Below, one piece after another: positions 1-18,781 of a stretch of 43,567 bases of DNA. Source of the DNA: Escherichia phage IK_ECO1. Under the pieces are notes generated by a model. The model saw only the letters and a list, made by a program, of their open reading frames with translations. It ran no database searches and was not told where the DNA came from. Every line of letters begins with the position of its first letter. Position 1 is the first letter of the stretch. A program made the translations under genes and the position numbers. The stretch is taken from the sequence record PP975109.1. One strand, written 5' to 3'.

Positions 1-77
1 GCTTTTTTTTTTTGTCCCTGTCTTCAGGGTCCTAGGGGTCTTTAATAGAGGAACAAATATGAGAGAATTAGATGCTG
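1..77. repeat. Window-terminal duplication: nt 1-77 recur at 43491-43567 with one mismatch (pos 25 c vs 43515 a); unit length 43,490 bp
   Basis: Direct comparison of the first and last 77 nt; the duplicated segment spans the capsid terminator T-run and the first codons of the gene at 59. Confidence 0.9.
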
Positions 78-619
78 TGAACTTGACATTAGAGGCTCTA
101 GGGGAGTCTCGGGTTATGGATATCAACACTTCAAACCCCAGCGCCGGGTTAGCGCGTTCTGCGCTCGCGCGCAATCGCCGAGGCCTGCTTAGTACAGGTT
201 ACTGGTTCAACGTAGTTGAGCGAGAGATTACCCCTACTGCTGACGGCTTTATTAAGATTCCATGGAACCAGCTAGCTGTGTATGATGCATGCTCCGACAA
301 TAAGTATGGGGTGCGTGACGGGAATCTTTACAACCTGGTAGAGCAGGATGAATACTTTGATTCTCCTGTTAAGGTTAAAGTAGTGCTGGACCTCAACTTC
401 GAGGACCTGCCGGAGCACGCTGCTATGTGGATTGCGAACTACACAGCTGCGCAGGTGTATCTGAATGACCTTGGCAGTGATGGCAACTACGCTAATTATG
501 CCTCAGAGGCTGAGCGATATAAGTCCCTGGTGCTACGAGAGCATCTTCGTAACCAGAAGTATAGTACCAGTAGGACCAGATTCGCACGTCGTATCCGTCG
601 TGCACGCTTCGTGATTTAA
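59..619 (+). CDS. Tail tubular protein A (T7 gp11-like), 186 aa
   Basis: Complete ORF with RBS agagga upstream; first gene after major capsid plus terminator; size close to T7 gp11; synteny-based call. Confidence 0.5.
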   Translation: MRELDAVNLTLEALGESRVMDINTSNPSAGLARSALARNRRGLLSTGYWFNVVEREITPTADGFIKIPWNQLAVYDACSDNKYGVRDGNLYNLVEQDEYFDSPVKVKVVLDLNFEDLPEHAAMWIANYTAAQVYLNDLGSDGNYANYASEAERYKSLVLREHLRNQKYSTSRTRFARRIRRARFVI

Positions 620-628
620 GGAGGGATT

Positions 629-3007: not shown

Positions 3008-3008
3008 T

Positions 3009-3590
3009 ATGTGGTGGATGGTCGCCGCTATGGCTGCCAAAACTGTGCTGGGTGCTGGCGCACAGGTTGAGGTTGCCAAAGCACGTAACAAAGCAGTAAT
3101 TCAGCAGACAGCGAAGCAGTTAAATGACATTGCGCTGCAACGTGCTCAGTCCAGGGATCGGACTGAGGTTGCCCTGTTCAACGTTCAACAGCAGAAGCTG
3201 CAAGCACAGAGTCAGGTAGGCCTGCAAGCTGCTGCGTCTGGTACTATGGGGGCGTCTGTTAAGGATGCAGTAGCAACCGTGAATACAGTAGCAGATCGTC
3301 AGGTATCTGGAATCAGGTCCCAGCAGGCCACTCAGGAAGAGGGCTACCGAATGATGGTGGATAAGGCCGTGGATAGCGGATTAGCCAATATGGACCTGGA
3401 GAGCGGATACGACAAGATGTTTAATGCCGCCTTGGGCTTTGGTGGGCAGCTGCTCGGGCAATACATAGGGAATGAACTATCCAAGAGCACTCCCGATAGT
3501 ACCGATACCACCCCGGGGCCCGCAGCAGATAATTCGTTCTTGTATGACCTATGGGGCAGCAAGGGTAATAGCAAAGTACACACCTGGTAA
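3009..3590 (+). CDS. Internal virion protein (193 aa), hydrophobic N-terminus
   Basis: ATG at 3009 with RBS ggagga, start abutting upstream stop; position between tail tubular B and large internal proteins. Confidence 0.4.
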   Translation: MWWMVAAMAAKTVLGAGAQVEVAKARNKAVIQQTAKQLNDIALQRAQSRDRTEVALFNVQQQKLQAQSQVGLQAAASGTMGASVKDAVATVNTVADRQVSGIRSQQATQEEGYRMMVDKAVDSGLANMDLESGYDKMFNAALGFGGQLLGQYIGNELSKSTPDSTDTTPGPAADNSFLYDLWGSKGNSKVHTW

Positions 3591-3605
3591 ACTAAGGGGA
3601 AGTAA

Positions 3606-6290
3606 ATGCCTGTAATTCAACCCAACCGACAGGGTCTAAATATCGGCGGCGTGCAATTGCAGGCCAACGAGATTAACTTACCCTCTACCGTAGGGGATGT
3701 AGTAGTAGACACGTCCAAAGCAAACCGCCTTGCAGCACTCTCTGGCTTCGTCCAGGACTTCGGTATAGGGTTTGATGCAGCAGTAAAAGAAAATGCAGCA
3801 GCAGCCACTGTGCGAGGTGCTATGGATGCCCAGGGTGCAGTAGATGCAATGGCCTCTAAAGATGAGGCAGTACAGAAGCAGAATCTATTTGTACGAGAAG
3901 CCTACCAGGATGGTTATGTATCTGCTGCGGCCTACGATTCTCTAGCTAAGTGGCGTACGGATAGTATTACTCGCGCTAAGAAGGCAGCTGAGGCCGGACT
4001 GACTGATGAGGAATTCCACCAGCAGGAGCAAGAGCATGTTCAAGCTATGTCTGACAAGCTCGGTATGTATCTTCCGGATATGTCCAAACAGTCCGCTACG
4101 GCGGTACTGCAACAGCTCCGTGCAACCAGCTTAGCTAACTACACGGCCTTCCAGAAAGGTCGCGCAGAGTTTGCAGTAGCACAAGCAGACCGTGCGCTGG
4201 ACCGTGGGCTCAGCTCCTCCGTTGATGAGTTCTATCAGCGCCTGGATGCTGGGCAGGGTGCTGCTGCACAGATGTCAATTAAGACAGGACTAGACAGTAT
4301 ACTAGCGGCTGAACACTTGGATAAATCCAAGAAGTTGGACCGAGCCAAGCAGTATCTGGTCAGTGTAGCGCAGCAGACCCAGGACCCTCTAATCATCAAC
4401 CAGTTGCAGGAAATGGCAACTAAAGAGCTTGGTGTTAACTCTGTAGACGTTAATGCTGCCTTGTATCAGGAATTTAAGCGTGCTGGGACTCAGATTGAGA
4501 CTCAGGCTCGCTTTGAAATCTCAGATGCAATTCAGTCTCTGGAGGGGCAGTCCCCAGAAGAGCAGGAGCAGACGATGCAGCGTATCCGCAACCGCGTGAT
4601 TGAGCTATCTGCTACGGATGTACTAAGCCCCGGCACCAGTATGGAATTCTGGAACAAGGCTCAGACTATCAGGGAGAAGACTGCCGATACACAGGCTTTA
4701 CGTAGTGCCCTCACAGGAAACCTTCCTACATCCACCTTAGCTGGTATGTTTAAAGGGGATCTGGATAAGGCCCGGTCACAGGTACTCAAAAACTTCCCAG
4801 ACACTCCAGAGGGGAACTTGCAGCTACTGGCTTATGGTAGCAATAGTAAAGATGCGTGGGCCATCAATGAAGCACACAAGCGCATGTCCTCGGATATGGC
4901 GCGCACCCTCACTACACTGGACCAGTTAGGTGAGGATGGGCAGGTGTCCAAGGAGAATGTCAATAGCATCAACCTGTGGGCCCAAGCATATAGTACCAGT
5001 ACCGACTTAGGTAAGATGGCTCTGCTGTCTGAAGTCCCATCTGAGTGGCAGGGGGTGGTTCAGAAGGCCATTGCACAGAACCCCAATAACGCTAGCAACA
5101 CTATTCTGGACGATCTGCGTCGCCAGGCCCGTAACAAGGCTAACGGGCGCTACAGCAACATCAGTAGCAACCCCACAGACAAAATGGTGGATCCGAGTCA
5201 CACTGCTAATTGGTTCAGCTTCTTCGGCACAGCTGACGCACAGCGCCAGGAAGCGCGCGCCGCTATGGAGGAAGAGTATCGGTACGTATACAACCACAAC
5301 CCAGAGGCGTTAGTTGGTAAGGATCCCGATGATATCAACACGATGCTCAAAGGTAACATCCAAGCCCGTAAGCTGGAGTTAGATATCTCTGGGGCTCCTC
5401 GGCACGTGTACCTGCCAGCTGGGACTTCTATTCAATCCCTAATGGGGGATTATCGAGGAGACCAGGAGCAGTTCAAGTCGTCTCTGCAGCAACAGATTCA
5501 GAACCAGGTCAACGCCTTAATCGACCCAAGCAACCTTGAGCGCGTAGTAGTGCAGGCTGCTACAGCAGGCAACTCAGCACAGAATATGACTGTCACCGTA
5601 TTCGACAAGAAGGGTACCTTTCAGACTATGTCTGTGAATCTACAGGATGTTCAATCTACTGCTCAGGATGCTTACAACAAGGCGCTGGCTGGTGAGATGA
5701 AGATTGGCAGCGAGCAAGTTGGTATCCGCCCAGCTACTTTCTACGATCATGACAACGGCAGAGCTGTAAGTGTTCAGGTCAATGGTCGTAATGGGGCTGG
5801 TGTAGAACCTTCTTTATTTAGTGAGATTCTCGCCAATACCATGCAGTTTGAAGGGTTCCGGGAAGGTAAGGGTAACGGCAGTGTAGGTTTTGGTCTGCAC
5901 AACAACTCCGGTATGCCTGTTCCGAAGAAGGTTACTATCGACGATGGTATCAGCATTCTGAAATCCTCTCTGGAGCAGCAATATATCCCGAACGTGAACA
6001 AGCAACTGCGCGGGCAGGGTCTAAGTGCTTCTGCGGATGCTATGAAGGTCATGGTTGACTTGAACTATCATGGTGGCAACGGGAGTTCTGGCCCTGTAGC
6101 AGAGGCCGTGGCACAGGTACGTAAGGCATCTAAGACCCCTGTAGGGGCTTACCAGTATCCTGTATCGGAGGCCCAAGGTAAGGCTTGGCAAGCACTGCGC
6201 AATACCCCAGCTTACAAGCAGGCACAGCCTAAACGTAAGAAATATCTGGAGCAAGGACTGCGTAACTGGATGTTTGAGGTAACACACTAA
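3606..6290 (+). CDS. Internal virion/core protein (gp15-like), 894 aa
   Basis: Long ORF with RBS aagggga; position in internal virion protein block; followed by hairpin at 6294. Confidence 0.45.
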   Translation: MPVIQPNRQGLNIGGVQLQANEINLPSTVGDVVVDTSKANRLAALSGFVQDFGIGFDAAVKENAAAATVRGAMDAQGAVDAMASKDEAVQKQNLFVREAYQDGYVSAAAYDSLAKWRTDSITRAKKAAEAGLTDEEFHQQEQEHVQAMSDKLGMYLPDMSKQSATAVLQQLRATSLANYTAFQKGRAEFAVAQADRALDRGLSSSVDEFYQRLDAGQGAAAQMSIKTGLDSILAAEHLDKSKKLDRAKQYLVSVAQQTQDPLIINQLQEMATKELGVNSVDVNAALYQEFKRAGTQIETQARFEISDAIQSLEGQSPEEQEQTMQRIRNRVIELSATDVLSPGTSMEFWNKAQTIREKTADTQALRSALTGNLPTSTLAGMFKGDLDKARSQVLKNFPDTPEGNLQLLAYGSNSKDAWAINEAHKRMSSDMARTLTTLDQLGEDGQVSKENVNSINLWAQAYSTSTDLGKMALLSEVPSEWQGVVQKAIAQNPNNASNTILDDLRRQARNKANGRYSNISSNPTDKMVDPSHTANWFSFFGTADAQRQEARAAMEEEYRYVYNHNPEALVGKDPDDINTMLKGNIQARKLELDISGAPRHVYLPAGTSIQSLMGDYRGDQEQFKSSLQQQIQNQVNALIDPSNLERVVVQAATAGNSAQNMTVTVFDKKGTFQTMSVNLQDVQSTAQDAYNKALAGEMKIGSEQVGIRPATFYDHDNGRAVSVQVNGRNGAGVEPSLFSEILANTMQFEGFREGKGNGSVGFGLHNNSGMPVPKKVTIDDGISILKSSLEQQYIPNVNKQLRGQGLSASADAMKVMVDLNYHGGNGSSGPVAEAVAQVRKASKTPVGAYQYPVSEAQGKAWQALRNTPAYKQAQPKRKKYLEQGLRNWMFEVTH

Positions 6291-6293
6291 CAG

Positions 6294-6311
6294 AGGCCCT
6301 TCGGGGCCTCC
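6294..6311 (+). terminator. GC hairpin gaggccc-ttcg-gggcctc (UUCG loop) after the gp15-like gene; terminator or RNA processing site
   Basis: Perfect 7-bp stem with tetraloop seen in sequence; no immediate T-run, so function uncertain. Confidence 0.3.
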
Positions 6312-6339
6312 CCTTATCAAAATTCTTTTAGGAGATAAT

Positions 6340-9300
6340 ATGGCTCAGTTTCTGAACCGAGAACCGAATCCACAGGAAAAGGATTCTGCTAAGGGCGCAA
6401 CACTTAAACCTGCGCCTACAAGCGTAGATTGGAATGACGCAGGAGATGATGGGCTGAATGCCCTACAGCGTTCATCTATACTGGCCCAGGCTAAAACCCC
6501 TGCGACGTCAGCAGGGGAGAGCTTTGCTGCTGGGGTTGGTAACAGCATTATAGCTGCAGCCATTAGAAAGGCCTCCTCCCCAACATTCGTCCCAGAGCAG
6601 GGGTTTGATGCTAAGAAACAACTAAGCACCGACTCCCGAGCTAAGCTCTACACCCCTAATCAGGAAGAGATTGATTACTTGCACGGGGCGGTGTCCCTGG
6701 ATGATTATAATTATCGCATTCAGGCTATGCTAGAACAGCGTGACCGTGACCGTCAGATGTCTGATAACACGGTAGCCGGGTTCACCGGTGCACTGGCTGG
6801 TGATGCTCCGTTTATACTGGCTCCGATGTCAGCGGCGGGTATCGCTGGTCGTGCTGGCTTAGCAGTGCGTACTGCTATCCGCGCAGCGGATGTAGGTACA
6901 GCTGTCTATGCACAAGATCAATTGGGACAGTCTGCGGCAGTCACTGCTCTGGTAGCAGGGGTAGCTGGACTAGACCAGCTCTGGGACATGTCTAAGGCTG
7001 CTAAAGTAGCAGCAAAGGCACGCACTGGGCGTGAGCCTATGTTTGACCCGGACGCGCCCACAACTCGTACAGCAAGGGATGCTAATGTTACAGGAGTAGG
7101 AGAAGGGGACACAATACTCACTAAGGTACTGGATGAACCTATCCAAGTTCGCCGGAATAACACTGCTGCTGTTAACATGAAAGCGCAGGACGTAGTCCGT
7201 TTCCTCAAGACCTCTGAACACTTATCTAAAGGTCAGAAGGCTATCCTGGACACCCTGGGTGATGCAGTACAGGATATTGATTTTAAACTGGTGGCTGGTT
7301 CTTCTAACCGTAGCCACTATGGATTTTCACCAGCATCAACCACTGATAGGGGTTTTGTATCTTTACGTGCCCCTAAGAAAGCTAACGGAAGTACCTGGAC
7401 TACTGCTAGGGACGCTCTGCGTGCTATGGATGCGGACACTAGCCGAGTAGCAGTGCACGAGCTGATTCACGCGGCCACCACCAGAGCCATCAAGCAGAAT
7501 CCTGAAATTGCGAGTAAGCTGGAAGAGGTGCGCGCTGCAATAGCATCAGATTCAACTCTTAGTGATAAATTCAAGTATTATGCAAGCGATGTGCACGAGA
7601 TGCTGGCTGGACTGGGAGACAGCCCTGAGTGGGTAGAGTACCTCTCTAGGACTAAATCCCCTACTGGTAAGAGTATGCTTCGCCAGATTGGTGAGTATAT
7701 CATGAATGCGCTTGGGGTCCGTACCAAGGGCTCCGCGCTGGAGGATGTTCTGGACGCGTACGAGGACGCTGTCAAGTGGACCGCAAAGGACTACGCAGAC
7801 CAAGCTCAGGGCTTCCGGAGTGAGTCCTTCCAGGACTTGGCGGATACATCGGTTAAGCATGAGGCCTTGAAAGCTCAGGCTATGATGGACACTGCTAAGC
7901 GTAAGCTCGCCACTATGTTCTCCTTGTATGATAACATCGCAGAAGGTAGTGAGGACCTAGCACGCTTATTAGTATCTGATGCTACTGCTGTAGGAGGTCG
8001 TAAGCCGTCTGTGGTGGACTTCAAGCGTAATCTTACGTTGGAGATGGACGCTAGTGCCAGTGTAGTTGAGGATGCTATACTAGGTGCCCTCAAGGCCAAA
8101 GGTGTAGGTTTCACGGACCGCTTCTTCCATCGTAGCAACTTCCGAGCAGCTCGCGCGGACTTAGAAGACCGCTTAGGCCGTTACCTGGACTCTGCATACA
8201 GTGCTGAGGTTAATGGGCGTCCTGTACCTCTGCCGGACTCCGACTTGGTTCCGCTCGTTGAGGCGTATCGCAACTCTGGTTGGGCTAGTAAGTGGCACGA
8301 CCACATGACCGCTGCCGGTTTAGTGGATGACGGTACTCTGGTTAAATCGGACTACTACTTCCCACGCCAGTATAGCTACGATAAGATGCGCCAAGGTATT
8401 GCAAATGGTCGCTCCCTGGATAATTATCGGGATCTGTTCCGTCAGGCATTACGTGACGTGTATCCATCTATGGAACCTGAGGTCGTTCAACGTGTTGCTA
8501 AGGAGATGGTTGATGGTATCTACAACGGACGCTCCTCGGCCTCTGGTCCTATGTGGAAGCAACTCATCAATGGTATGGGTAATGATGAAGTGGTTATGGC
8601 CATGCGTAATGCTGGCGTAGACGAGAGTGCAATCCAGAGTTTCTTGGCAGGTAATGTCCGAGAATCTGGCGCTACCTCGCCTGCTCGGAACCTGCGTCAA
8701 CGTACCCGCTTCAACATGGATAAAGAGTACATCGTGGATGGTCAGGCTATGCGTATGCAGGACCTGATGGACACTGACGTAGCCAAGGTAATGCACGGTT
8801 ACACCAACCGCATGTCTGGTCGTGTAGGTATGGCCTATGCTGGTGTCTCTGACCTCAAGACTCTAGAGACGATGATTAACGAGTCCAAACACGCCCTAGC
8901 CGATTCGGGTAAGTGGGAGAAGACTGTTAATGATACCATTGACTTTATCCTGGGTGGGGCCCCGGCCGATGCCGGGCAGATGCCGGACCTGTTGCGTGCA
9001 GCGGGGAATATGGCTAACGCTACCATGCTCAAGAACTCTGGATTGTACCAGCTTACTGACACCGCTCTGGCTCTGAAAGAGTTCGGTATGTCCCGAGTAC
9101 TCCGCAGTATGCGTGAGCAGCCCTGGTTTAAAGAGGGTGCCGTAGCTATTCGTAATCCGGACATGGCTAGTCGCCTGGATACAATCCTACGTGGCAGTAT
9201 CCAGAAGGAGATGCGCTTCCGCTGGCTGAATACCTACGCAGACGATAACTTGGACCTGACCCGTCAGGCTTCCTGGTTTAACGTCACGCAGAACGTTGGG

Positions 9301-10038
9301 CAGGCCGCTAGGCATGTTAACGGTATGAGCATGGTGCACAGACTGCAGGTTAACTTGAACTCCGGGATTGTTGCTGATGAACTCAAGCAGATGTTCAAAG
9401 GTGATGCAGAGGCATTCAAACGCCTGGAGCGCTTCGGGCTTACCCGTGATGTTGCAGACCGTGCTATTGCTGCCAATAAGGCTAACCCTGGCGCTATGTT
9501 CCAGCCGGACCTGCAAATGCAAATTGAGGTGGTAGGTACCAGAATGATGGACTACCTGGTGCAGCAAGTACGTACCGGTGAGACCTCACACTTCGCACAG
9601 TTTAACCCTATTGGTAAAGTAATCGTCGGCTACCAGAGCTTTGCCCTGGCTGCCACCAACAAGATTCTCCGCCGAGAGTTGAACGACGCTGGGTGGATTG
9701 GGGTTGCGCACATTATGGCGTACCAGTTCCCGTTGATGCTGCTCGCTACTATGGCGAAGCATGGTATGGATGGCAAAGAGGTAGACACCCAGAAGCTTAT
9801 TGCTGAGTCAGTTATGGGTATGAGTGCCATCGGTGGTATCTCGCTTCTACAGGACATCTTCACTGGGGATTCCCCACGTCACTCGTTGGCGTCTATGGGT
9901 TACGTCACTGGGCTGCTGGGTGCCGTGCAAGCCCTGGCTACTGGGGATATGGATATCCAGACCTTCACTAAGCAGGTCCCGTTAATCCAGGAATTCGCAC
10001 CTACGCGAGCTATCATCAATAACTTCGGAGACGATTAA
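6340..10038 (+). CDS. Internal virion protein D / ejection protein (gp16-like), 1232 aa; contains an HELIH (HExxH) motif
   Basis: Largest ORF, RBS aggaga; position before tail fiber as in T7 gp16; HExxH at approx nt 7456-7470. Confidence 0.5.
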   Translation: MAQFLNREPNPQEKDSAKGATLKPAPTSVDWNDAGDDGLNALQRSSILAQAKTPATSAGESFAAGVGNSIIAAAIRKASSPTFVPEQGFDAKKQLSTDSRAKLYTPNQEEIDYLHGAVSLDDYNYRIQAMLEQRDRDRQMSDNTVAGFTGALAGDAPFILAPMSAAGIAGRAGLAVRTAIRAADVGTAVYAQDQLGQSAAVTALVAGVAGLDQLWDMSKAAKVAAKARTGREPMFDPDAPTTRTARDANVTGVGEGDTILTKVLDEPIQVRRNNTAAVNMKAQDVVRFLKTSEHLSKGQKAILDTLGDAVQDIDFKLVAGSSNRSHYGFSPASTTDRGFVSLRAPKKANGSTWTTARDALRAMDADTSRVAVHELIHAATTRAIKQNPEIASKLEEVRAAIASDSTLSDKFKYYASDVHEMLAGLGDSPEWVEYLSRTKSPTGKSMLRQIGEYIMNALGVRTKGSALEDVLDAYEDAVKWTAKDYADQAQGFRSESFQDLADTSVKHEALKAQAMMDTAKRKLATMFSLYDNIAEGSEDLARLLVSDATAVGGRKPSVVDFKRNLTLEMDASASVVEDAILGALKAKGVGFTDRFFHRSNFRAARADLEDRLGRYLDSAYSAEVNGRPVPLPDSDLVPLVEAYRNSGWASKWHDHMTAAGLVDDGTLVKSDYYFPRQYSYDKMRQGIANGRSLDNYRDLFRQALRDVYPSMEPEVVQRVAKEMVDGIYNGRSSASGPMWKQLINGMGNDEVVMAMRNAGVDESAIQSFLAGNVRESGATSPARNLRQRTRFNMDKEYIVDGQAMRMQDLMDTDVAKVMHGYTNRMSGRVGMAYAGVSDLKTLETMINESKHALADSGKWEKTVNDTIDFILGGAPADAGQMPDLLRAAGNMANATMLKNSGLYQLTDTALALKEFGMSRVLRSMREQPWFKEGAVAIRNPDMASRLDTILRGSIQKEMRFRWLNTYADDNLDLTRQASWFNVTQNVGQAARHVNGMSMVHRLQVNLNSGIVADELKQMFKGDAEAFKRLERFGLTRDVADRAIAANKANPGAMFQPDLQMQIEVVGTRMMDYLVQQVRTGETSHFAQFNPIGKVIVGYQSFALAATNKILRRELNDAGWIGVAHIMAYQFPLMLLATMAKHGMDGKEVDTQKLIAESVMGMSAIGGISLLQDIFTGDSPRHSLASMGYVTGLLGAVQALATGDMDIQTFTKQVPLIQEFAPTRAIINNFGDD
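7085..7102 (+). promoter_or_regulatory. Copy of the repeated motif atgttacaggagtaggag, inside the gp16-like gene; candidate phage RNAP promoter
   Basis: Exact 17-18 nt identity with copies at 18310 and 38994. Confidence 0.35.
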
Positions 10039-10039
10039 T

Positions 10040-11548
10040 ATGGCATACAGCTGGCAAGAGCAAATCAAGCCAGCTGGTACCCAGGATATCCAGTGTGATA
10101 TTGAGTATTTGGACAAGTCCTATATTCATGTATATCTCGACGGCGTCGAAACCACTGGGTACACCTGGACCAGCTCTACAAATATTAGGCTGAACACAGC
10201 CTTGACAGCGGATACGACGGTACTGCTCATTCGCAAGACCGAGCGCGAGTATCTGTACATTGAGTTTGCTAGTGGTTCCCCATTCATCGAGGTGAACGTA
10301 GACTCTCAAAACACCCAGTTCTTACACTTAGCTCAAGAGCTGGTGGAGGGTAGGGCCATCCCCGGATTCTACGGGGATATAAGCATGAACGGCTTCCGCA
10401 TCACCAACTTAGGTACTGGGGTTAATCCGGGGGATGCCGTTAACAAGGGACAGCTTGACGTGGTAGATGCACGTGTAACCAGTCTGGAAGAGACGTGGGT
10501 AACGGCTGCTACCAGCTATCCTTGGTACACTACTACCACCACTGAAACCGACGTACTGGACCCGCCCTTTAACTTCACTAAGGCTGCTCTGTACATCACT
10601 GGTGTGTGCCAGACCCCAGGCTATAGCTACGTGGTAGTAGATAATCAGATTATGCTAGCGGACCCTGTACCTGCGGGTACGCACATCTTTGCCCGCCTAG
10701 GTGAGGATGTAGGTCTAGACCCTAACTATGCCACCGCAGACCAGCTAGCTGCTGCTATCAGTCAAGCGCAGCTTGAGCATAACGCGCTACAGGCGGGTAT
10801 CGATGGCAAAGCAGCTAAGGGTGCTAACTCTGATATCACGAGCTTGAGCGGGCTTATAACGCCTCTCAGCACAACTCAGGGTGGTACAGGTAGTACTACT
10901 GGAGTAGCACCTAAAGCTACTGTTCTTGAAACCTCTCGTACAGTACAAGTAAACCTAGCAACCACCACCGCAGCCAGTTTCGATGGTTCCGCCAACATCT
11001 CTCCAGGTGTAACAGGTACGCTACCTGTAGTCAACGGAGGTACAGGTGGTACTACCCCAGCGGGCGCTCGTGGTAATCTAGGGGCTGCTGCTAGCGGTTC
11101 TAACTCGGATATTACCGCACTCACCTCGTTGAGCGGCGGTATTACTGGCCTGACTACAGGTACTGCGGCTGCTCCGGGTATCGTAGGACAGGAGCTGTCT
11201 GCGTCGTCTGGTACGGCTGTATCCTTAACTTCTGGGACCCTGACCAACGTAGCAAGCATCAGCCTACCTGCTGGGGATTGGGAGCTAGAGAGTGCGTTGC
11301 GTGTAACTAACGCAGGCAACATCACGCTCCTGAACTTTGGGGTCAGTGCTACCTCAGCCACCCTGCCTACAGATTGGTGGGACCGTTACAACATCACTAC
11401 AACGCTGGCAGCAGGTACTTCTACTCGTCAGGGTATGTCTCGCAGGGTTCTGCTCAGCGCGACTACTACACTGTACCTAGTAGCGCAGGCTACCTTCACC
11501 AGTACCTGTACAGCAGACGGTTATATCAGAGCACGGAGGGTGCGTTAA
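10040..11548 (+). CDS. Tail fiber protein with T7 gp17-like N-terminal adaptor domain, 502 aa
   Basis: N-terminal region (…RITNLGTGVNPGDAVNKGQLD…) resembles T7-type fiber anchor; internal repeat GANSDITSLSG / GSNSDITALTSLSG; position before terminase. Confidence 0.6.
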   Translation: MAYSWQEQIKPAGTQDIQCDIEYLDKSYIHVYLDGVETTGYTWTSSTNIRLNTALTADTTVLLIRKTEREYLYIEFASGSPFIEVNVDSQNTQFLHLAQELVEGRAIPGFYGDISMNGFRITNLGTGVNPGDAVNKGQLDVVDARVTSLEETWVTAATSYPWYTTTTTETDVLDPPFNFTKAALYITGVCQTPGYSYVVVDNQIMLADPVPAGTHIFARLGEDVGLDPNYATADQLAAAISQAQLEHNALQAGIDGKAAKGANSDITSLSGLITPLSTTQGGTGSTTGVAPKATVLETSRTVQVNLATTTAASFDGSANISPGVTGTLPVVNGGTGGTTPAGARGNLGAAASGSNSDITALTSLSGGITGLTTGTAAAPGIVGQELSASSGTAVSLTSGTLTNVASISLPAGDWELESALRVTNAGNITLLNFGVSATSATLPTDWWDRYNITTTLAAGTSTRQGMSRRVLLSATTTLYLVAQATFTSTCTADGYIRARRVR

Positions 11549-11850
11549 TGGCAAAGGCGGCAACCAAGAGCCGTCTCAGCGAACTTCACAGGATGTTTGC
11601 TGAGGCGCTGATTAGCGAACTCAAGCAGGCCGGGGAAGATGAGGTCCCTTTACCGGCTGCTGATAAATCTGTTATTGCCAAGTTCCTGAAAGACAATGAC
11701 ATTACCGCCGATGCAGATTCCGAGGAGATGCAGGAGCTACGTGATGAATTCGATGACGAACTAGCGGCGCGCAGAGAGGCGCGTAAGAAAGAGATTTTGA
11801 ACAAGATTAGTGGTTCAGACTCTGAGGACTTACTAGAAGGAATTGTCTAA
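11548..11850 (+). CDS. Putative terminase small subunit (DNA maturase A), 100 aa, acidic C-terminus
   Basis: ATG at 11548 overlapping fiber stop by 1 nt, RBS ggaggg; immediately upstream of terminase large subunit; the track ORF 11374-11850 is the same frame with an earlier spurious start. Confidence 0.45.
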   Translation: MAKAATKSRLSELHRMFAEALISELKQAGEDEVPLPAADKSVIAKFLKDNDITADADSEEMQELRDEFDDELAARREARKKEILNKISGSDSEDLLEGIV

Positions 11851-13706
11851 TGGTATCGGTGAAGACTGCGCGAAGACTGCGCATGCTCAACCAGAAACTT
11901 ACTGGTTATAGTGTGAACCCGCGCAGTATTCCCAAAGAGGAGCGCGAGGATATCGCCATGATGATGGCGGCTACCCTCAGTAATTTCAGGGAGTTCGCAT
12001 ACATCGGTATGCGTTTCCTAGGCTTTACGCTCACGGACATGCAAGCCGACATTGCAGAGTATATGCAGAAGGGTCCTAGAAAGCGTATGGTGGCTGCGCA
12101 GCGTGGTGAGGCTAAATCTACGCTAGCTGCATTATACGCTGTCTGGAGGCTCATCCAGGACCAATCCTGCCGTATACTGATTGTATCTGGTGCGGAGAAG
12201 CAGGCGTCCGACGTTGCGAACTTAATCATTCGTATGTTGGAAACCTGGCCGCTGTTGTGTTACTTGAAGGCTGACCCTACGCGCGGGGACCGTACTTCAT
12301 TCGAAGGTTATGATGTCAACTGCGACCTGAAACCACTGGATAAGTCTGCTAGCGTAGCCTGTGTAGGTATCACTGCATCACTGCAGGGTAAGCGTGCTGA
12401 CCTCTTGATTCCAGATGATATTGAGACTACTAAGAACGGTTTAACACAAACCCAGCGTGAGCAGTTGCTGATGATTTCGAAAGACTTCGCAGCTATCTGT
12501 ACACATGGGGATACACTGTACCTGGGTACACCGCAGACCAAGGACAGTATTTATAAAACCCTGCCGGGACGTGGCTTTGAAGTACGAGTATGGCCTGGAC
12601 GTATCCCGTCAGTTGAAATGGAAGAACGATATGGAAGTACACTTGCTCCTTATATACTGCAGCTCATTGAGCGGGGTTATAAACGTACCGGGTTCGGAGT
12701 AGACGGAACACTAGGTGAGAGCACAGACCCCGGTCGTTACGATGAGGATGCGCTGATTGAGAAGGAGCTGGACTTCGGTCCAGAGGGCTTCCAGCTGCAG
12801 TACATGCTCGATACAACCTTATCGGACCAGATGCGTACCCGTATCAAGTTGTCGGATATGCTTGTGTACTCCGGTAGCCTAGATTCCTCACCTGAGACCT
12901 TCTCCTATATTGCAGACCGTCGGTACTTGTACCAGCATGAGCATGAGGGGATTATGGGTCAGCAGATGTACTTCCCGGCATTCTACGGAGATATGCACTT
13001 GCCGTATCAGCACAAGGTGTTGGTAGTGGACCCAGCTGGTTGTGGTGGGGATGAAGTCTCCTATGCTGCGGGCGGGGCTGCTAACTCATACATTCATCTG
13101 TTCTCCGTTGGGGGCTTCCAAGGAGGTGTGAGCACCGAGAATATCGACAAGCTCATCGACCTGTGCGTAGAGTTAGACATCTCTGACATGGTGGTAGAGA
13201 GTAACATGGGGCACGGTACCGTGTCTATGCTTATTCTGAACCGCTTACGAGAGCGTCACCTTGCTGGTATTGGTGTGCGTGACATTAACAACACCACGCA
13301 GAAAGAACGTCGTATCATAGACACAATCAGTCCAGTAACTCGACGACACCGCCTAGTGGTGCATGAGCGTGCTATTCACGATGATATTGGGACTTGTATG
13401 CTATACTCCCGAGATCGTCGCTGGTTGTACTCTGCGTTCGCACAGCTCGCAGGTATTACGTATGACCGGGGTAGCTTGGCTAAGGATGACCGAGCAGACG
13501 CCATCGCTATGATGGTAGCAGTACTGAACGGGCATCTGGTAGAAGACGAGAAAGTGGTAGCTGCACGAGAGTCTGAGAAGCAGGCACTAGCATTCATCAA
13601 TAACCCGCTGGACTGGGCGCAGGGTATGGTCCAGAAACAGTTGCGGGGAGTCGCTGCACGGCTGCAAGGTCGGGGTAGAGGCAAACAACATAGAGGAAGA
13701 CGATAA
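11850..13706 (+). CDS. Terminase large subunit (DNA maturase B), 618 aa
   Basis: Size and position typical of T7 gp19; nuclease-like segment VLVVDPAGCGGDEVSYA; start overlaps upstream stop. Confidence 0.7.
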   Translation: MVSVKTARRLRMLNQKLTGYSVNPRSIPKEEREDIAMMMAATLSNFREFAYIGMRFLGFTLTDMQADIAEYMQKGPRKRMVAAQRGEAKSTLAALYAVWRLIQDQSCRILIVSGAEKQASDVANLIIRMLETWPLLCYLKADPTRGDRTSFEGYDVNCDLKPLDKSASVACVGITASLQGKRADLLIPDDIETTKNGLTQTQREQLLMISKDFAAICTHGDTLYLGTPQTKDSIYKTLPGRGFEVRVWPGRIPSVEMEERYGSTLAPYILQLIERGYKRTGFGVDGTLGESTDPGRYDEDALIEKELDFGPEGFQLQYMLDTTLSDQMRTRIKLSDMLVYSGSLDSSPETFSYIADRRYLYQHEHEGIMGQQMYFPAFYGDMHLPYQHKVLVVDPAGCGGDEVSYAAGGAANSYIHLFSVGGFQGGVSTENIDKLIDLCVELDISDMVVESNMGHGTVSMLILNRLRERHLAGIGVRDINNTTQKERRIIDTISPVTRRHRLVVHERAIHDDIGTCMLYSRDRRWLYSAFAQLAGITYDRGSLAKDDRADAIAMMVAVLNGHLVEDEKVVAARESEKQALAFINNPLDWAQGMVQKQLRGVAARLQGRGRGKQHRGRR

Positions 13707-14083
13707 TGGCATCAATCATCGCGGCTAAATCTGCGGAGGTCCAGTACACTATTGTGGGTAAGAGCCAGAACCTCGAGAAAGAGGTGGCCCCGGATTACAA
13801 TGCCGGGTTTGTGGGTACGGGTGCGCTGGATAAATTCAACACGTTCTTTACCTACATGGAGTCCCAAGGCTACTCGGCTACAGCTGTCGGGGAATCCTTT
13901 AAGGATGATGGCAACCTGCAGGCGCGACTGTTCTCCATGCTGTTCCAGCTTAGCAAGACCGGTTACGTAGCGCTCACTGGTACAGGTATGCCGCTAGGTG
14001 AGGGTTCTGGTACGGACTTCGACAACTCATTCACGGCCCTACAGTCGGCCTTCGTCGCAGCGACTAACGCTGCTGCAGCATAA
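13706..14083 (+). CDS. Hypothetical protein, 125 aa
   Basis: ORF start overlapping terminase stop; no recognisable motif. Confidence 0.4.
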   Translation: MASIIAAKSAEVQYTIVGKSQNLEKEVAPDYNAGFVGTGALDKFNTFFTYMESQGYSATAVGESFKDDGNLQARLFSMLFQLSKTGYVALTGTGMPLGEGSGTDFDNSFTALQSAFVAATNAAAA

Positions 14084-14096
14084 TAGGAGAATCACT

Positions 14097-14279
14097 ATGG
14101 CAATTGCTAAGGCAACACAAACACAGCAGCAGGAGCTGCTGCGTCAACTGAACATTCTGGGTAAGGACCTCTACGCAATCCTTACTCAGCCCCAGGATGT
14201 AGCTCAGACCGGTGCGGCGTTCGACGCTAAGATTGCTGCCCTAGAAGCAGCTATCACTGCTGTGAAGACGGCCAGCTAA
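14097..14279 (+). CDS. Hypothetical protein, 60 aa
   Basis: ATG at 14097 preceded by RBS taggaga; translationally coupled to next gene. Confidence 0.4.
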   Translation: MAIAKATQTQQQELLRQLNILGKDLYAILTQPQDVAQTGAAFDAKIAALEAAITAVKTAS

Positions 14280-14683
14280 TGCGTAAACTGGTCGCTGGGT
14301 TACTGCTCGTAGCTACTCTGACTGGTTGCTCAGCGACCTCTGCACTTACCGGCTTAGTTGGTTCTAAGCCGGAAGTATCTGCACAGGTTGGTGCTGAGAA
14401 TACCAAGCAGATGCTCGGGCTGAATAATAAGGTGGACTCCAGCACCACCAACAAGACTGATGTACAGGATTCTAACGTAGGTACACTGGATACTTCTAGC
14501 AAGAAGAAAGTGCAGACTATTAGCACCGGCACAATCCAAGCAGATCGCCTACAAGTGGTTAACAACGATAGTTACAGCCTTATCCTCGCCGGATTAGCAG
14601 GGGCCAGTATTCCTTTGGTCTTCCTAGTGACCATTCTGGTGATTCGTAAGCTGTTTAGGAAGAAGGGTCAGCAGGATGATTAA
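14279..14683 (+). CDS. Lipoprotein with C-terminal transmembrane helix, 134 aa; unimolecular-spanin-like architecture
   Basis: N-terminal signal peptide with lipobox LTGC (MRKLVAGLLLVATLTGCS), Ser/Thr/Lys-rich middle, C-terminal hydrophobic helix LILAGLAGASIPLVFLVTILVI followed by RKLFRKK; adjacent to holin and lysozyme. Confidence 0.55.
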   Translation: MRKLVAGLLLVATLTGCSATSALTGLVGSKPEVSAQVGAENTKQMLGLNNKVDSSTTNKTDVQDSNVGTLDTSSKKKVQTISTGTIQADRLQVVNNDSYSLILAGLAGASIPLVFLVTILVIRKLFRKKGQQDD

Positions 14684-14927
14684 AGTAGGAGACGTAGTTG
14701 GGGCAGACCTCGCTACCCGGGCAGGTGCAGCTGTTACTGGCGCTACAGTCTCAGGAGGCTGGTTGGCAGAGCTAATGAGTTGGAACTGGAGTGTTATCAG
14801 CTTCATCACTGCGACGGTGTGTGCAGTGCTAACCCTGGCGTGGAATGCGTACTATAAACGACGCACATACAAGCTCCTAGAAGAGCACGCACGTAAGGGG
14901 ACTATTAAATATGAGTTTAAGGACTAG
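14676..14927 (+). CDS. Putative holin (pinholin-like), 83 aa
   Basis: Weak Gly/Ala-rich hydrophobic segment followed by a clear TM helix (WSVISFITATVCAVLTLAW) and charged C-terminus; overlaps both neighbouring lysis genes. Confidence 0.5.
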   Translation: MIKVGDVVGADLATRAGAAVTGATVSGGWLAELMSWNWSVISFITATVCAVLTLAWNAYYKRRTYKLLEEHARKGTIKYEFKD

Positions 14928-15510
14928 GGTTATAGCTGCACTCGCCGGGGCTACTATGCTTGGCGGGGCTATTACTGAGGTAATCCAGCACAATGAGGGT
15001 TTGAGCCTTACAGCCTACAAAGACAGTGCCGGTATCCCTACGATCTGCTACGGGGAGACAAAGGGTGTCAAAATGGGCCAGAGAGCCACTCTGAGCGACT
15101 GTCAGAAGCAACTGATAGAATCAGCAGGGGAACATGCTAAGGCTCTTGACGGGCTTCCTATGCAGCTCTCTGACGTGGCTCTGATAGGGTCTGTAGACTT
15201 CATCTATAACGTAGGCGTAGCCGGCTTCAATGGCAGCGCCGTGAAACGGCACCTCAAAAACCTTGATTACGCAGCGGCTGGAAAGGCTGTGCTGGACTGG
15301 CGTTACATTAGCAAGTACCAGCAGAAGTCCCCAGGCACCGGTTGGGTGTACAAGGGTGGCAACCGCTGGACCTTTGATTGCTCTCAGTATATTAACGGGC
15401 AGCGTAATAAGGTGTGCTGGGGCCTCTGGGAGCGCCGTCAGTGGGAAGCCAAAGCTATTGGCAATGAGTTTAAATCCATGCAGGCAGCAGTAGCTGCTAT
15501 GCCTAAATAA
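14911..15510 (+). CDS. Endolysin, phage lysozyme (GH24, T4-lysozyme-like) with SAR-like N-terminus, 199 aa
   Basis: Catalytic pattern E-x8-D-x5-T in HNEGLSLTAYKDSAGIPTICYGET matches T4 lysozyme spacing; N-terminal weakly hydrophobic stretch VIAALAGATMLGGAIT. Confidence 0.7.
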   Translation: MSLRTRVIAALAGATMLGGAITEVIQHNEGLSLTAYKDSAGIPTICYGETKGVKMGQRATLSDCQKQLIESAGEHAKALDGLPMQLSDVALIGSVDFIYNVGVAGFNGSAVKRHLKNLDYAAAGKAVLDWRYISKYQQKSPGTGWVYKGGNRWTFDCSQYINGQRNKVCWGLWERRQWEAKAIGNEFKSMQAAVAAMPK

Positions 15511-15519
15511 GGAAATAGT

Positions 15520-17643
15520 ATGGCTCTCGTACGTAATATTACTGTCCCGAGTTATTACTCTGGACTTAACGTTGTTGACTACGGGGTAGTAGGCGACGGT
15601 ATCTCGGATGATACAGTAGCCTATACTCGAACTGTTGAAGCTGCTAATGCACTGCAACTGCCTGTATATGTACCTCCAGGTATGCGTGTCCGTATCACCG
15701 GTAGTTCTAACATTACACATAAGTACGGTTTTAACTTTAACGGCAGTACCTTGGATATTCAAGAGTATGCTGGTAAGTTCCTGTTCCAGCGCCAGGTAGC
15801 CCCTGTTCAATACTCTGCTGGTTCGCCACTTCTTACTGCTTTAGCAAGTACTACTTTAAGCGGAACTTATAACAGTGTTATGTCAGGCCGTACAGAACTG
15901 GATAACTGCTACGTAAATATAGTTACTAACCAGCCGTACTATACCTACCGTGGGGCTGTTACTACTCGTACTGAACGTTTAGCTGTAATCCGTAACGGTA
16001 TGCTTGAGGGCACTCTTAAATATCCGCTTGCAGGTTCTAGAATCACAGGCATCACTGCATACCCTCTTCCAGATAAGGAAGTAGTGTATGAGAACGTGGT
16101 GGTGGACGTAGGTGCTAATCAGCTGCAAGGTAACCCGTTCCTGATTGAGGCCGATAAGGTACGTTTAGAGAACTGGTCTTTTAAGCAATCTAACGTACTA
16201 TTTACCTCTGTAAATCCAGTATACGTAGTCATGCGTAACTGCTTCCATATGCGCGTACGCAACTTCCAGATGCAGTGGACTACTCGTACCGCTGCTAACA
16301 ACTTTACGTACGGCGTGGCTGCTGAGTACTGTTCAGATATCGAGTTTGACTCAATGAAAGGTGTAGGCGACGGTTGGGGCATGACCGGTTTCAACGAGAA
16401 TCGTCGCTGTACCTTCAGGAACTGTCAGCTTAGCCGAATAGATACGCACCAGCCTTTCATTGAATGGTTGCGTGTGCTGGACTGTGATACCGGTCAGTGG
16501 GGTATTAGTCTAACTGCCTTAGGTGATGTTATTGTTAAAGGTGGTAGCATTACCCTGACTAACGATAGCGTTTATACAGATAAGGTAGGCTTTATACTAT
16601 TGCGTAATGAGTGCGGCGGGGTACTGGATGGTCAGTTAGTAGTTGATGATGTTACCCTCAAGAACTACACCAGTACTACAACTCAAGCCTTAGTATATCA
16701 CCGTGGGGACTTAGCAGATGCCCCACCTTCAGGTTCCCCTGTTAACTTCCAATGCAGTAGCAGTATGCTCATCAAGAACCTGCGTTCAGATGGCCGCATC
16801 GTAGAGCTTGCCCCTACCATCAACGGTGCTTCAGGTATTAAGTACCCGGCCAGTATCGTAGTTCAGGACTGTATTGAAGGTATCTACAGCTTTGCTACTA
16901 ATATAAGTACCTTTACCCCGAACAGTACGATAACTACTCCAGTCGATAACGCCTTAGGTAGTATCTCGAATCTGAAGGTACAGTTACGTAGCTGCAATAT
17001 CCGCAGTAACGTCTCCCTGGTAGATACGTCCATCCCACAGAAATTTGTAGTGGATATGCTGCTTGATGGTGTATTCGGAAACGGTGCATTCAATCCGGGA
17101 CTACAGGTTAAGTTCGGAGGTACTGTCAGCTGTGTTAACTCTGTACTGGAAGGCTTGGACTTCTTCTCAGGGGCTGCACTGGACCGGTACTTGAAGGTGT
17201 CAGTAGTAGGTGGAGGTATTCGCCACACTGGACGTTTCCGTACTGTACCTGTGAACGGGGCTAATACCTTAGTCTCGGTTATTATCCAGGGAGCTGCATT
17301 GCAGAGCACTACGGCTGCTGCATTACGTTATTATATGGTGGCGCATCTGCAAGGTTGTACCTACAGCGTAGCCGGGTCTGCCAGTACCCCTACATTAACT
17401 GTCACCCCAGATGGTAGTACTAGTTACGATACTGGGGTAGTTGGTATTAACAGTAAGAACCTAATGCAACTTACAGCCAGTGTAAGTGGGGTACTTAGAA
17501 GGGTACCGTTCTTCCTGCCTGCTAGTGGTGGTAGTACTTACGTGCAGTTAGATAACGGTGTTTACGCTAACATAACCTACAGCGGAAGTACTGTAACTGT
17601 TTCTACCACAGCAGGTTTAGGCGGGATTACGTTGGTAGGCTGA
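15520..17643 (+). CDS. Tailspike / polysaccharide depolymerase, right-handed beta-helix (pectate-lyase-like), 707 aa
   Basis: N-terminal motif NVVDYGVVGDGISDDT typical of pectate lyase 3 / beta-helix tailspikes; last structural-type gene before the non-coding region; lacks T7 fiber anchor domain. Confidence 0.6.
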   Translation: MALVRNITVPSYYSGLNVVDYGVVGDGISDDTVAYTRTVEAANALQLPVYVPPGMRVRITGSSNITHKYGFNFNGSTLDIQEYAGKFLFQRQVAPVQYSAGSPLLTALASTTLSGTYNSVMSGRTELDNCYVNIVTNQPYYTYRGAVTTRTERLAVIRNGMLEGTLKYPLAGSRITGITAYPLPDKEVVYENVVVDVGANQLQGNPFLIEADKVRLENWSFKQSNVLFTSVNPVYVVMRNCFHMRVRNFQMQWTTRTAANNFTYGVAAEYCSDIEFDSMKGVGDGWGMTGFNENRRCTFRNCQLSRIDTHQPFIEWLRVLDCDTGQWGISLTALGDVIVKGGSITLTNDSVYTDKVGFILLRNECGGVLDGQLVVDDVTLKNYTSTTTQALVYHRGDLADAPPSGSPVNFQCSSSMLIKNLRSDGRIVELAPTINGASGIKYPASIVVQDCIEGIYSFATNISTFTPNSTITTPVDNALGSISNLKVQLRSCNIRSNVSLVDTSIPQKFVVDMLLDGVFGNGAFNPGLQVKFGGTVSCVNSVLEGLDFFSGAALDRYLKVSVVGGGIRHTGRFRTVPVNGANTLVSVIIQGAALQSTTAAALRYYMVAHLQGCTYSVAGSASTPTLTVTPDGSTSYDTGVVGINSKNLMQLTASVSGVLRRVPFFLPASGGSTYVQLDNGVYANITYSGSTVTVSTTAGLGGITLVG

Positions 17644-17662
17644 GGCATATCTGAGGCATATC
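17641..17662. repeat. Tandem 11-mer tgaggcatatc x2 beginning at the tailspike stop codon
   Basis: Seen directly in sequence. Confidence 0.8.
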
Positions 17663-17681
17663 TCAGGAAAGTGCATTAAGG

Positions 17682-17707
17682 TACATGGAAATCCTACATG
17701 GAAATCC
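17682..17707. repeat. Perfect tandem 13-mer tacatggaaatcc x2
   Basis: Seen directly in sequence. Confidence 0.85.
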
Positions 17708-17819
17708 CAGACTGAGCGCATGTAAACGTGCAGTTCATTTTTATTATACTTATGCGAGGACCTCCCTCACCCTCAACGCGCCCCAGTGCCCCCATAGGGG
17801 GTGCCCAGTGGAAATTAGA

Positions 17820-17830
17820 GGGGGGGGGGG
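17820..17830. repeat. G11 homopolymer flanked by palindromes (cccccataggggg; gcaggccaactagtgggcctgc)
   Basis: Seen directly in sequence. Confidence 0.8.
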
Positions 17831-17857
17831 TGGACGTTTAGACGTCTAGCAGGCCAA

Positions 17858-18280
17858 CTAGTGGGCCTGCTAGTGCGCTCTAGGGAGCCGTAGAAGCTCC
17901 CTGCGTGCCTTAGTGGGTATTGCTAGTGCTATCCTATGCTTATCGCTGTGTGCCTCTTGTAGAAGCTCTGGGAAGCTCTGGGAGGCACTGGGCTATCCCT
18001 TGCTATCCCTGCGTATTCACTGGGTGCGCTCTGGGCTATCCCTGCGTGCTCTCTGTGGGGCGTAGGGGGTGCGCTCTGCCTTGCTTATTTTGTGCCTGTA
18101 TTGTGCGCCTAGTGGGCCAGCTAGTGCGCTGTGGTGCTATCCCTAGTGCGTACTAGGCTATCCACTGGCTATCCTTAGTGCTTTACATTGTGCCGATTCT
18201 GTGCTACGCTGCGCGCTCCCCACTAGGGCGCACATCCACTACCCACCACACACCGCCACCTAGTGCTATCTCTTCACCCT
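17858..18280. repeat. Dense family of short direct repeats (ctagtg(c/g), gctatcc(c)t, gaagctctggg x2, ctgggctatccctgcgt x2) in non-coding DNA; probable genome-terminus / packaging or replication-associated region
   Basis: Repeats read by eye; no credible ORF; resembles short-repeat arrays near T7-type genome ends. Confidence 0.5.
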
Positions 18281-18309
18281 TACTTTCATTCGAAAGCTAA
18301 TAAGAAATG

Positions 18310-18327
18310 ATGTTACAGGAGTAGGAG
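18310..18327 (+). promoter_or_regulatory. Copy of repeated motif atgttacaggagtaggag in non-coding region; candidate phage RNAP promoter
   Basis: Exact identity with copies at 7085 and 38994. Confidence 0.4.
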
Positions 18328-18781
18328 GGTTTTAGGGCACTACATACACACTACCTACTACTACTCACTAGTATCCCCTAGTAATGCCCTATATTACGAC
18401 CGTAGGGAGTAAGCATTACCTACACAGTCACCGCATCACTACGTGCCCTTTCACTTCGTACGGGCACTACGTTCTGCTTATGTAGTGTTAGATGGTATTA
18501 GTTAGCATTGGCTAGTATTGGTTACAGCCATTGGCTGCATAGTGCTATCTCTAGAGCTATCACTAGAATAGAAGCATTGGCTAAGTGTTTGCCCTGCTTA
18601 CTCTTTTTGCTCTTAAGGATAAATAGTTGCAAAAAGTATCAAATAGTACTTGCTTCTTTTGGTTTATTGGCGCTATAGTTCAATCACCGGGAGGCACTGA
18701 GGCGCTGAACGGGGTAGAGTCGGGAGACTCCACCGGATTAAAGCTAGATGGTGTGAAGGGTTAGATACTCGATAAAAAGAG

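Follow-up and report, generated by a model that had tools for sequence, protein, structure and literature searches.

The 43,567-bp stretch of DNA analysed here (sequence record PP975109.1; hereafter the window) is the complete, circularly permuted genome of Escherichia phage IK_ECO1, a KP34-like podophage (Autographiviridae, Slopekvirinae, genus Drulisvirus). Its positions 1-15519 align over 93% of their length with Escherichia phages AV102 and Minorna, at about 94% nucleotide identity, and further matches were found to Drulisviruses of E. coli, Shigella and Klebsiella. We focused on the gene at 15520-17643 on the plus strand, which encodes a tailspike of 707 amino acids (aa), the putative second receptor-binding protein (RBP2) of the virion. 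Its surroundings are ordered as nozzle, internal virion proteins, tail fibre (10040-11548), terminase, spanin, holin, endolysin (14911-15510) and spike. The spike gene is the last of the late genes, beginning 9 nucleotides (nt) past the stop codon of the endolysin gene directly upstream, and is followed by a non-coding repeat-rich stretch and then by the early region. Its placement at the far end of the late region, already recognised in the original prediction made from the sequence alone, corresponds to the KP34-type slot after the endolysin. This slot holds differing spikes in AV102, Minorna, KP34, phiKDA1 and KKP 3828, and the layout of the fibre, endolysin and spike genes is common to AV102, Minorna, KKP 3828, phiKDA1 and Peat1.

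The open reading frame (ORF) of the spike is intact, with an ATG start and an AAGGA ribosome-binding site 8 nt upstream. The motif singled out in the original prediction, VDYGVVGDGISDDT, was located at aa 19-32 (nt 15574-15615). It falls within the N-terminal cap and first beta-helix turns (15568-15750, plus strand), which bear a GDG..DD motif and match PF12708 (rhamnogalacturonase A/epimerase, pectate-lyase-like) over aa 17-77 with an E value of 5e-7 and 30.1 bits, just over the curated cut-off of 27. The T7-type anchor PF03906 was not found in the spike by a Pfam scan, as had been claimed. PHROG 16586 ("tail fiber") matches the spike with an E value of 6e-50, and an exhaustive search of 1.84 billion cluster representatives returned 185 relatives at E <= 1e-3; the spike is consequently not a chance ORF. 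A pseudogene or fused ORF was also ruled out, the spike being intact and co-linear with its homologues over aa 7-707, and so was an anchor hidden in the spike, the N-terminal adaptors of 100-300 aa carried by the homologues being simply absent.

In 50,697 phage records, megablast with the spike gene as query gave no nucleotide match, and the best protein match among these phage genomes reaches 29% identity. No match was obtained by blastn in 5,426 complete E. coli genomes either, so that prophage matches give no reading of the host. A word-indexed search with the spike profile returned no homologues beyond those already found, and neither the spike nor the fibre is present in a collection of 15 billion proteins queried by exact-sequence look-up.

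Structure prediction, suggested earlier as a check on the fold, yielded a beta-helix; the lack of such a fold, named beforehand as a refutation, was thus not observed. The AlphaFold2 model of the spike, a monomer built on an alignment of 8 sequences, is nearly all beta, with a mean predicted local distance difference test score (pLDDT) of 80.1 and a predicted TM-score (pTM) of 0.81; pLDDT falls below 50 at residues 1-5 and 11-17. A Foldseek search of the PDB, which also provided the comparison with known capsule depolymerases that had been called for, placed first 8X8M, the K64 capsule depolymerase K64-ORF41 of Klebsiella phage SH-KP152410 (E 8e-26, TMq 0.76). The next PDB matches were AP22 gp54, phi297 gp61, P560dep, the K1 lyase, LKA1 gp49 and the HK620 and P22 tailspikes. 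Matches in BFVD were phage tail fibres or spikes only, among them the K64-specific depolymerase of K64-1. The spike as modelled is a right-handed parallel beta-helix of the tailspike type.

K64-ORF41 is a beta-elimination lyase whose catalytic residues are Tyr528, His574 and Arg628 (review PMC11652154). Once corrected for the 20 additional residues (a tag) that make the 8X8M chain longer than native K64-ORF41, a profile alignment to this structure matches them to Tyr264 (nt 16309-16311), His310 (16447-16449) and Arg362 (16603-16605) of the spike, all on the plus strand and all predicted to be catalytic. His310 lies in an L-x-R-x-D-x-H-x-P motif that also contains R306 and D308, and the pairing of His574 and Arg628 with H310 and R362 is the same in the phmmer and the profile alignments. 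Conservation was counted in a MAFFT alignment of 105 of the 185 relatives, extending down to about 22% identity. Y264, D308 and H310 are present in all 105 representatives, R362 and R306 in 103 each, and these are the most conserved positions of the alignment. Judged from this homology, the spike is most likely a Tyr/His/Arg polysaccharide lyase acting on a uronic-acid-containing polymer. K64-ORF41 otherwise differs from the spike in being a 1017-aa first receptor-binding protein with its own KP32virus-type anchor, and its K64 substrate specificity is not transferable to the spike.

The second candidate receptor-binding protein of the window, the 502-aa tail fibre (first receptor-binding protein, RBP1; 10040-11548, plus strand), does carry the T7 gp17-like anchor ascribed to it in the original prediction: PF03906 matches aa 13-141 (nt 10076-10462, plus strand) with an E value of 4.7e-15 and 56 bits against a cut-off of 25.2. 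In KP34viruses, the first RBP combines such an anchor with a T4gp10-like branching domain, assigned by HHpred, and the second, whose gene follows that of the endolysin, has the heptapeptide MALxxLV at its N-terminus (Latka et al. 2019, PMC6872550). The spike starts with a variant of this docking peptide, MALVRNI (aa 1-7; nt 15520-15540, plus strand), and the beta-helix begins shortly behind it, at about aa 17. The corresponding segment of the fibre is a branching domain at aa 159-224 (SYPW...ARLGEDV; nt 10514-10711, plus strand), homologous to the KP34-type segment and presumed to be the docking site of the spike. It aligns with the matching segment of the 307-aa KP34-type fibre 23sh_r and with HRP29 gp44, and is conserved in 35 distinct fibre sequences. 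These sequence features agree with the KP34-like attachment of the spike through the fibre that had been proposed.

Docking peptides were surveyed in over 60 related viral contigs, in each of which the gene following that of the endolysin was extracted. The N-termini of these RBP2 proteins are mostly MAL[TVIS]x[LV][VI] and diverge completely afterwards. An identical MALVRNI opens the spike of Enterobacter phage phiKDA1 (Koutsourovirus) and that of the metagenomic Logan contig L003, while kindred N-termini are found in Salmonella phage KKP 3828 (MSLVNVI), Pectobacterium phage Peat1 (MSLVQLI) and contig L065 (MTLVKTI). The Ile at position 7 likewise occurs in some Drulisviruses. The spikes of AV102 (contig L001, 19578-21098) and Minorna (L002, 19577-21097) begin with MLNLTKV... 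and are also off the MALxxLV consensus; the branching domain of their fibres (IPWCTVTT...GVHQDIGYGF) is a separate sequence type.

Related phages provide precedents for a spike held by a fibre. The window fibre matches gp47 of Pectobacterium phage PhiM1 (PDB 8VBX) with an E value of 2e-152, its aa 139-502 domain alone reaching 5e-138, and its aa 1-256 match gp44 of Shigella phage HRP29 (PDB 8ES4; E 7e-95). In the cryo-electron microscopy structure of PhiM1, the gp47 fibres form six trimers, which double as adaptors for trimers of the spike gp39 (PMC11440229), and HRP29 gp44/gp52 is a purified tail protein complex. In both solved virion structures, a fibre or adaptor trimer homologous to the window fibre carries a spike trimer, although the spikes are P22/Sf6-like and unrelated in sequence to that of the window, and PhiM1 gp39 is unresolved in the structure, so that the peptide-domain contact is not seen at the atomic level. 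In KP32/K11, the pairing of branching domain and conserved peptide was validated experimentally, the loss of either abolishing RBP2 incorporation in KP32.

The arrangement is close in kind to that of KP34 itself. The gene of the K63 capsule depolymerase KP34 gp57, an RBP2, likewise closes the late region behind that of the endolysin; the protein lacks an anchor and has a short MAL... peptide running straight into the beta-helix, and the first RBP of KP34 combines a T7-type anchor with a homologous branching domain. The two systems differ in their peptides (MALTKLV in KP34, MALVRNI in the window) and in their spike bodies, gp57 being a hydrolase (Glu266/Glu300) to which the window spike has no detectable sequence similarity. 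They also differ in their fibres: that of KP34 is a truncated adaptor of 307 aa, whereas the 502-aa fibre of the window has its own distal domain (group B of Latka, KpV74-like). Phages phiKDA1 (fibre gpORF53, spike gpORF61) and KKP 3828 resemble the window in gene order and in the distal part of the fibre, 93-96% identical at the protein level, and phiKDA1 also in its heptapeptide. Their spike bodies (461 aa in phiKDA1 and 557 aa in KKP 3828), however, are different modules, and their backbones share only about 68-77% nucleotide identity with the window. Escherichia phage PAS7 (Cepavirus) offers another anchorless RBP2 from a Slopekvirinae phage of E. coli, and its beta-helix is shared with P22-like prophage tailspikes through horizontal transfer, but this beta-helix module differs from that of the window and is assigned to the O-antigen of its O103 host.

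Comparison with the nearest relatives delimits two exchanged segments. Homology to AV102 and Minorna ends at 10480 and is back at 11569, the gap corresponding to the fibre from aa 147 onward, then ends again at 15522 and is back at 17712, the gap this time covering the whole spike. The 3' edge of the swapped cassette is thereby placed at 17644-17711 (no strand); identity to L003 drops after about 17650. In AV102 and Minorna, three small ORFs (250, 148 and 113 aa) stand in place of the distal fibre, and an unrelated spike of 506 aa occupies the spike slot. The fibre is chimeric: its anchor is of Drulisvirus type, its shaft, branching domain and tip of Koutsourovirus type. In the anchor part, which reaches to about nt 10370-10480, it shares 94% identity with Drulisvirus AV102. 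The first portion, nt 10040 to about 10370, resembles Drulisviruses and is 56-65% identical to Salmonella phage KKP 3828 (Koutsourovirus). From about nt 10370 to 11567, nucleotide identity to KKP 3828 is 88-99%, and at the protein level the distal 355 aa share 96% identity with KKP 3828 and 93% with phiKDA1.

Contig L003 holds the sole near-identical copy of the spike in very large metagenome collections, its spike protein being 97% identical. L003 is a different podophage, of E. coli type. Its backbone, which is closest to those of E. coli O104:H4 phage ECO104 4-5-2 and of PAS7, shares only 66-72% identity with the window, a value that rises to 96-100% exactly across the spike gene. Base composition differs as well, the spike having 46.8% GC and 43% GC at third codon positions (GC3) in a genome of 51.2% GC whose core genes have a GC3 of 53-66%. 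The swapped distal part of the fibre is slightly GC-richer (54%). The spike body (aa 7-707) recurs elsewhere in fusion with other N-termini: a P22 head-binding domain, one of TSP1/Gp66 type in prophages of E. coli and Lelliottia, and that of a siphophage. By these sequence comparisons, the spike is a horizontally exchanged cassette with signs of recent transfer between phage genera. With its sharp borders and the co-acquired part of the fibre, it is a clear case in nature of the exchange of RBP modules that is now imitated in phage engineering.

The type of heptapeptide appears to co-vary with the type of branching domain (contigs L003, L065, L083, L084 and L085 versus L006-L062). The type SYPWYTT...GVCQTPGYSY...MLADPVPAGTHIFARLGEDV is common to the window (fibre aa 159-224), phiKDA1, KKP 3828, Peat1 and L065 and differs from the KP34 type. 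M-x-L-V-x-x-I goes with such CQTPGYSY/LADPVP domains, in only about six independent examples, and MALxxLV with GVGQIRGYSF or GVNQIPGYSF domains. Tentatively, peptide and branching domain might constitute a matched, lineage-specific "address code" (Koutsourovirus/Phimunavirus type versus KP34 type). The phage would then be a natural cross-genus transplant in which a Drulisvirus backbone acquired both Koutsourovirus-type halves, that is, the fibre from about aa 110-147 on plus the spike, still fitting each other. Such a pairing rule, if true, could be read from sequence and used in the design of RBP swaps.

Taken together, we consider it likely that the spike is a fibre-docked, presumably trimeric beta-helix tailspike of a Tyr/His/Arg lyase family, carried on an exchanged cassette. 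It would be the second receptor-binding protein of the virion and degrade a host surface polysaccharide. Its MALVRNI peptide would dock onto the branching domain of the trimeric tail fibre, itself held on the tail by its T7 gp17-like anchor, so as to place a fibre-plus-spike complex at each of six tail positions. Beta-elimination at the putative active site Y264/H310/R362 would break down a capsule or O-antigen that contains uronic acid and so open the way to the outer membrane. The spike cassette and the distal two-thirds of the fibre would thus endow a Drulisvirus backbone with a receptor-binding set of the Koutsourovirus/Cepavirus type. Several observations weigh against this model. Tyr528, matched to Y264 in the profile alignment, falls two residues off in the single-sequence phmmer alignment, and K64-ORF41, the nearest characterised enzyme and sole characterised member of the family, is only about 20% identical to the spike. 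The docking peptide departs from the exact MALxxLV consensus by an Asn instead of Leu at position 6. Lastly, an hhalign comparison of the branching domain, as a shallow 12-sequence profile, with a single sequence of T4 gp10 gave a probability of 0.3%, i.e., no signal; given its low power, we do not take this comparison as refuting the model.

The strongest competing explanation retains the same architecture and changes the substrate, which would be the lipopolysaccharide O-antigen (or O-antigen capsule) of E. coli or a related enterobacterium instead of a K-type capsule or exopolysaccharide. We give it close to an even chance. Homologues P0005 and P0007 bear a P22 head-binding domain, the former within a P22-like late operon, and the E. 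coli prophage homologue P0003, 49% identical to the spike, adjoins a gtrA/gtrB/gtrC-like operon. In this prophage (contig L086, 10576-13337; E. coli GCA_019840545.1), three genes lie behind the tailspike gene on the other strand: gtrA (PF04138), one for a gtrB-like glycosyltransferase (PF00535) and a gtrC-like one of 494 aa. They form an O-antigen glucosylation (serotype conversion) operon. The 97%-identical copy of the spike also lies in a phage related to ECO104 4-5-2 and to PAS7, whose anchorless RBP is assigned to O-antigen recognition, and two of the fold matches, LKA1 gp49 and phi297 gp61, are O-antigen lyases. On the other hand, K64-ORF41, the K1 lyase and AP22 gp54, the nearest relatives in sequence and fold that have been solved and characterised, are capsule lyases. 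Capsule enzymes can also be borne on P22-like adaptors, as is the endosialidase of CUS-3, and a lyase mechanism requires that the repeat unit include a uronic acid, as it does in some O-antigens only. Because of the P22-like late operons and the gtrABC operon around the closest homologues, and of the assignment of the PAS7 RBP, we regard an acidic O-antigen as about as likely a substrate as a capsule. Overall, the original observation is confirmed and its interpretation is essentially right: the model bears out the beta-helix of the proposed second RBP, with the refinement that its substrate may be an O-antigen instead of a capsule or exopolysaccharide.

It is unlikely that the spike is a glycoside hydrolase or deacetylase in which the conserved Tyr, His and Arg would serve binding or structure. 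Beta-helix tailspikes of the same fold are often hydrolases (P22, HK620, KP34gp57, KP32gp38), and the identity to K64-ORF41 is low, at about 20%. Yet the three catalytic residues of K64-ORF41, together with D308 and R306, are the very positions most conserved in the 105 representatives, and no alternative conserved Asp/Glu pair was identified among them.

A non-catalytic adhesin, a soluble non-virion enzyme or a spike bound to the tail directly instead of through the fibre would agree with the absence of an anchor domain, the off-consensus peptide and the lack of signal against T4 gp10 (obtained with a shallow profile and a single-sequence template), but is highly improbable given the conserved triad, the same gene slot and peptide type in all relatives surveyed, the spike trimers held by a homologous fibre or adaptor in PhiM1 and HRP29, and the loss of RBP2 incorporation in KP32 without the conserved peptide or branching domain.

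Under the preferred model of a fibre-docked lyase, the polysaccharide serotype open to attack by the phage probably depends on the spike. Its proposed role as the main host-range determinant is retained as that of a candidate, without the "main": the fibre is a second candidate, being a full-length chimera and not a bare adaptor as in KP34, and being swapped as well with respect to the nearest relatives. The dual-RBP architecture is already well described (textbook) for KP34-like phages, and the spike is without a close relative in sequenced phages. With at most 29% protein identity in the 50,697 phage genomes and a single near-identical metagenomic copy, it would represent an uncharacterised specificity in a small lyase family of 185 cluster representatives. 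What is added here to the known architecture is the Tyr/His/Arg lyase assignment, the docking-peptide variant with its matching branching domain, the precise borders of the cassette, caution regarding the O-antigen and the second host-range candidate.

A scan for sigma-70 promoters and terminators around the spike gene detected background levels only. The non-coding repeat-rich region 3' of the spike extends from 17644 to about 18400. An 11-nt tandem repeat, CTGAGGCATAT x2, overlaps the stop codon of the spike (17640-17661) and may be a recombination scar, and a 13-nt tandem, TACATGGAAATCC x2, lies at 17682-17707. Further downstream come 11 consecutive G (17820-17830) and a 14-nt palindrome (17846-17873). 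Short repeats containing CTAGTG are numerous in the region. The whole of 17640-18400 is probably a genome end or terminal-repeat zone. Finally, a 158-aa ORF with a TTG start (11374-11850) overlaps the 3' end of the fibre gene and matches the small terminase family only over its last 100 or so aa (PHROG 891, aa 58-156); the true start of the small terminase is probably an internal codon just past the fibre stop.

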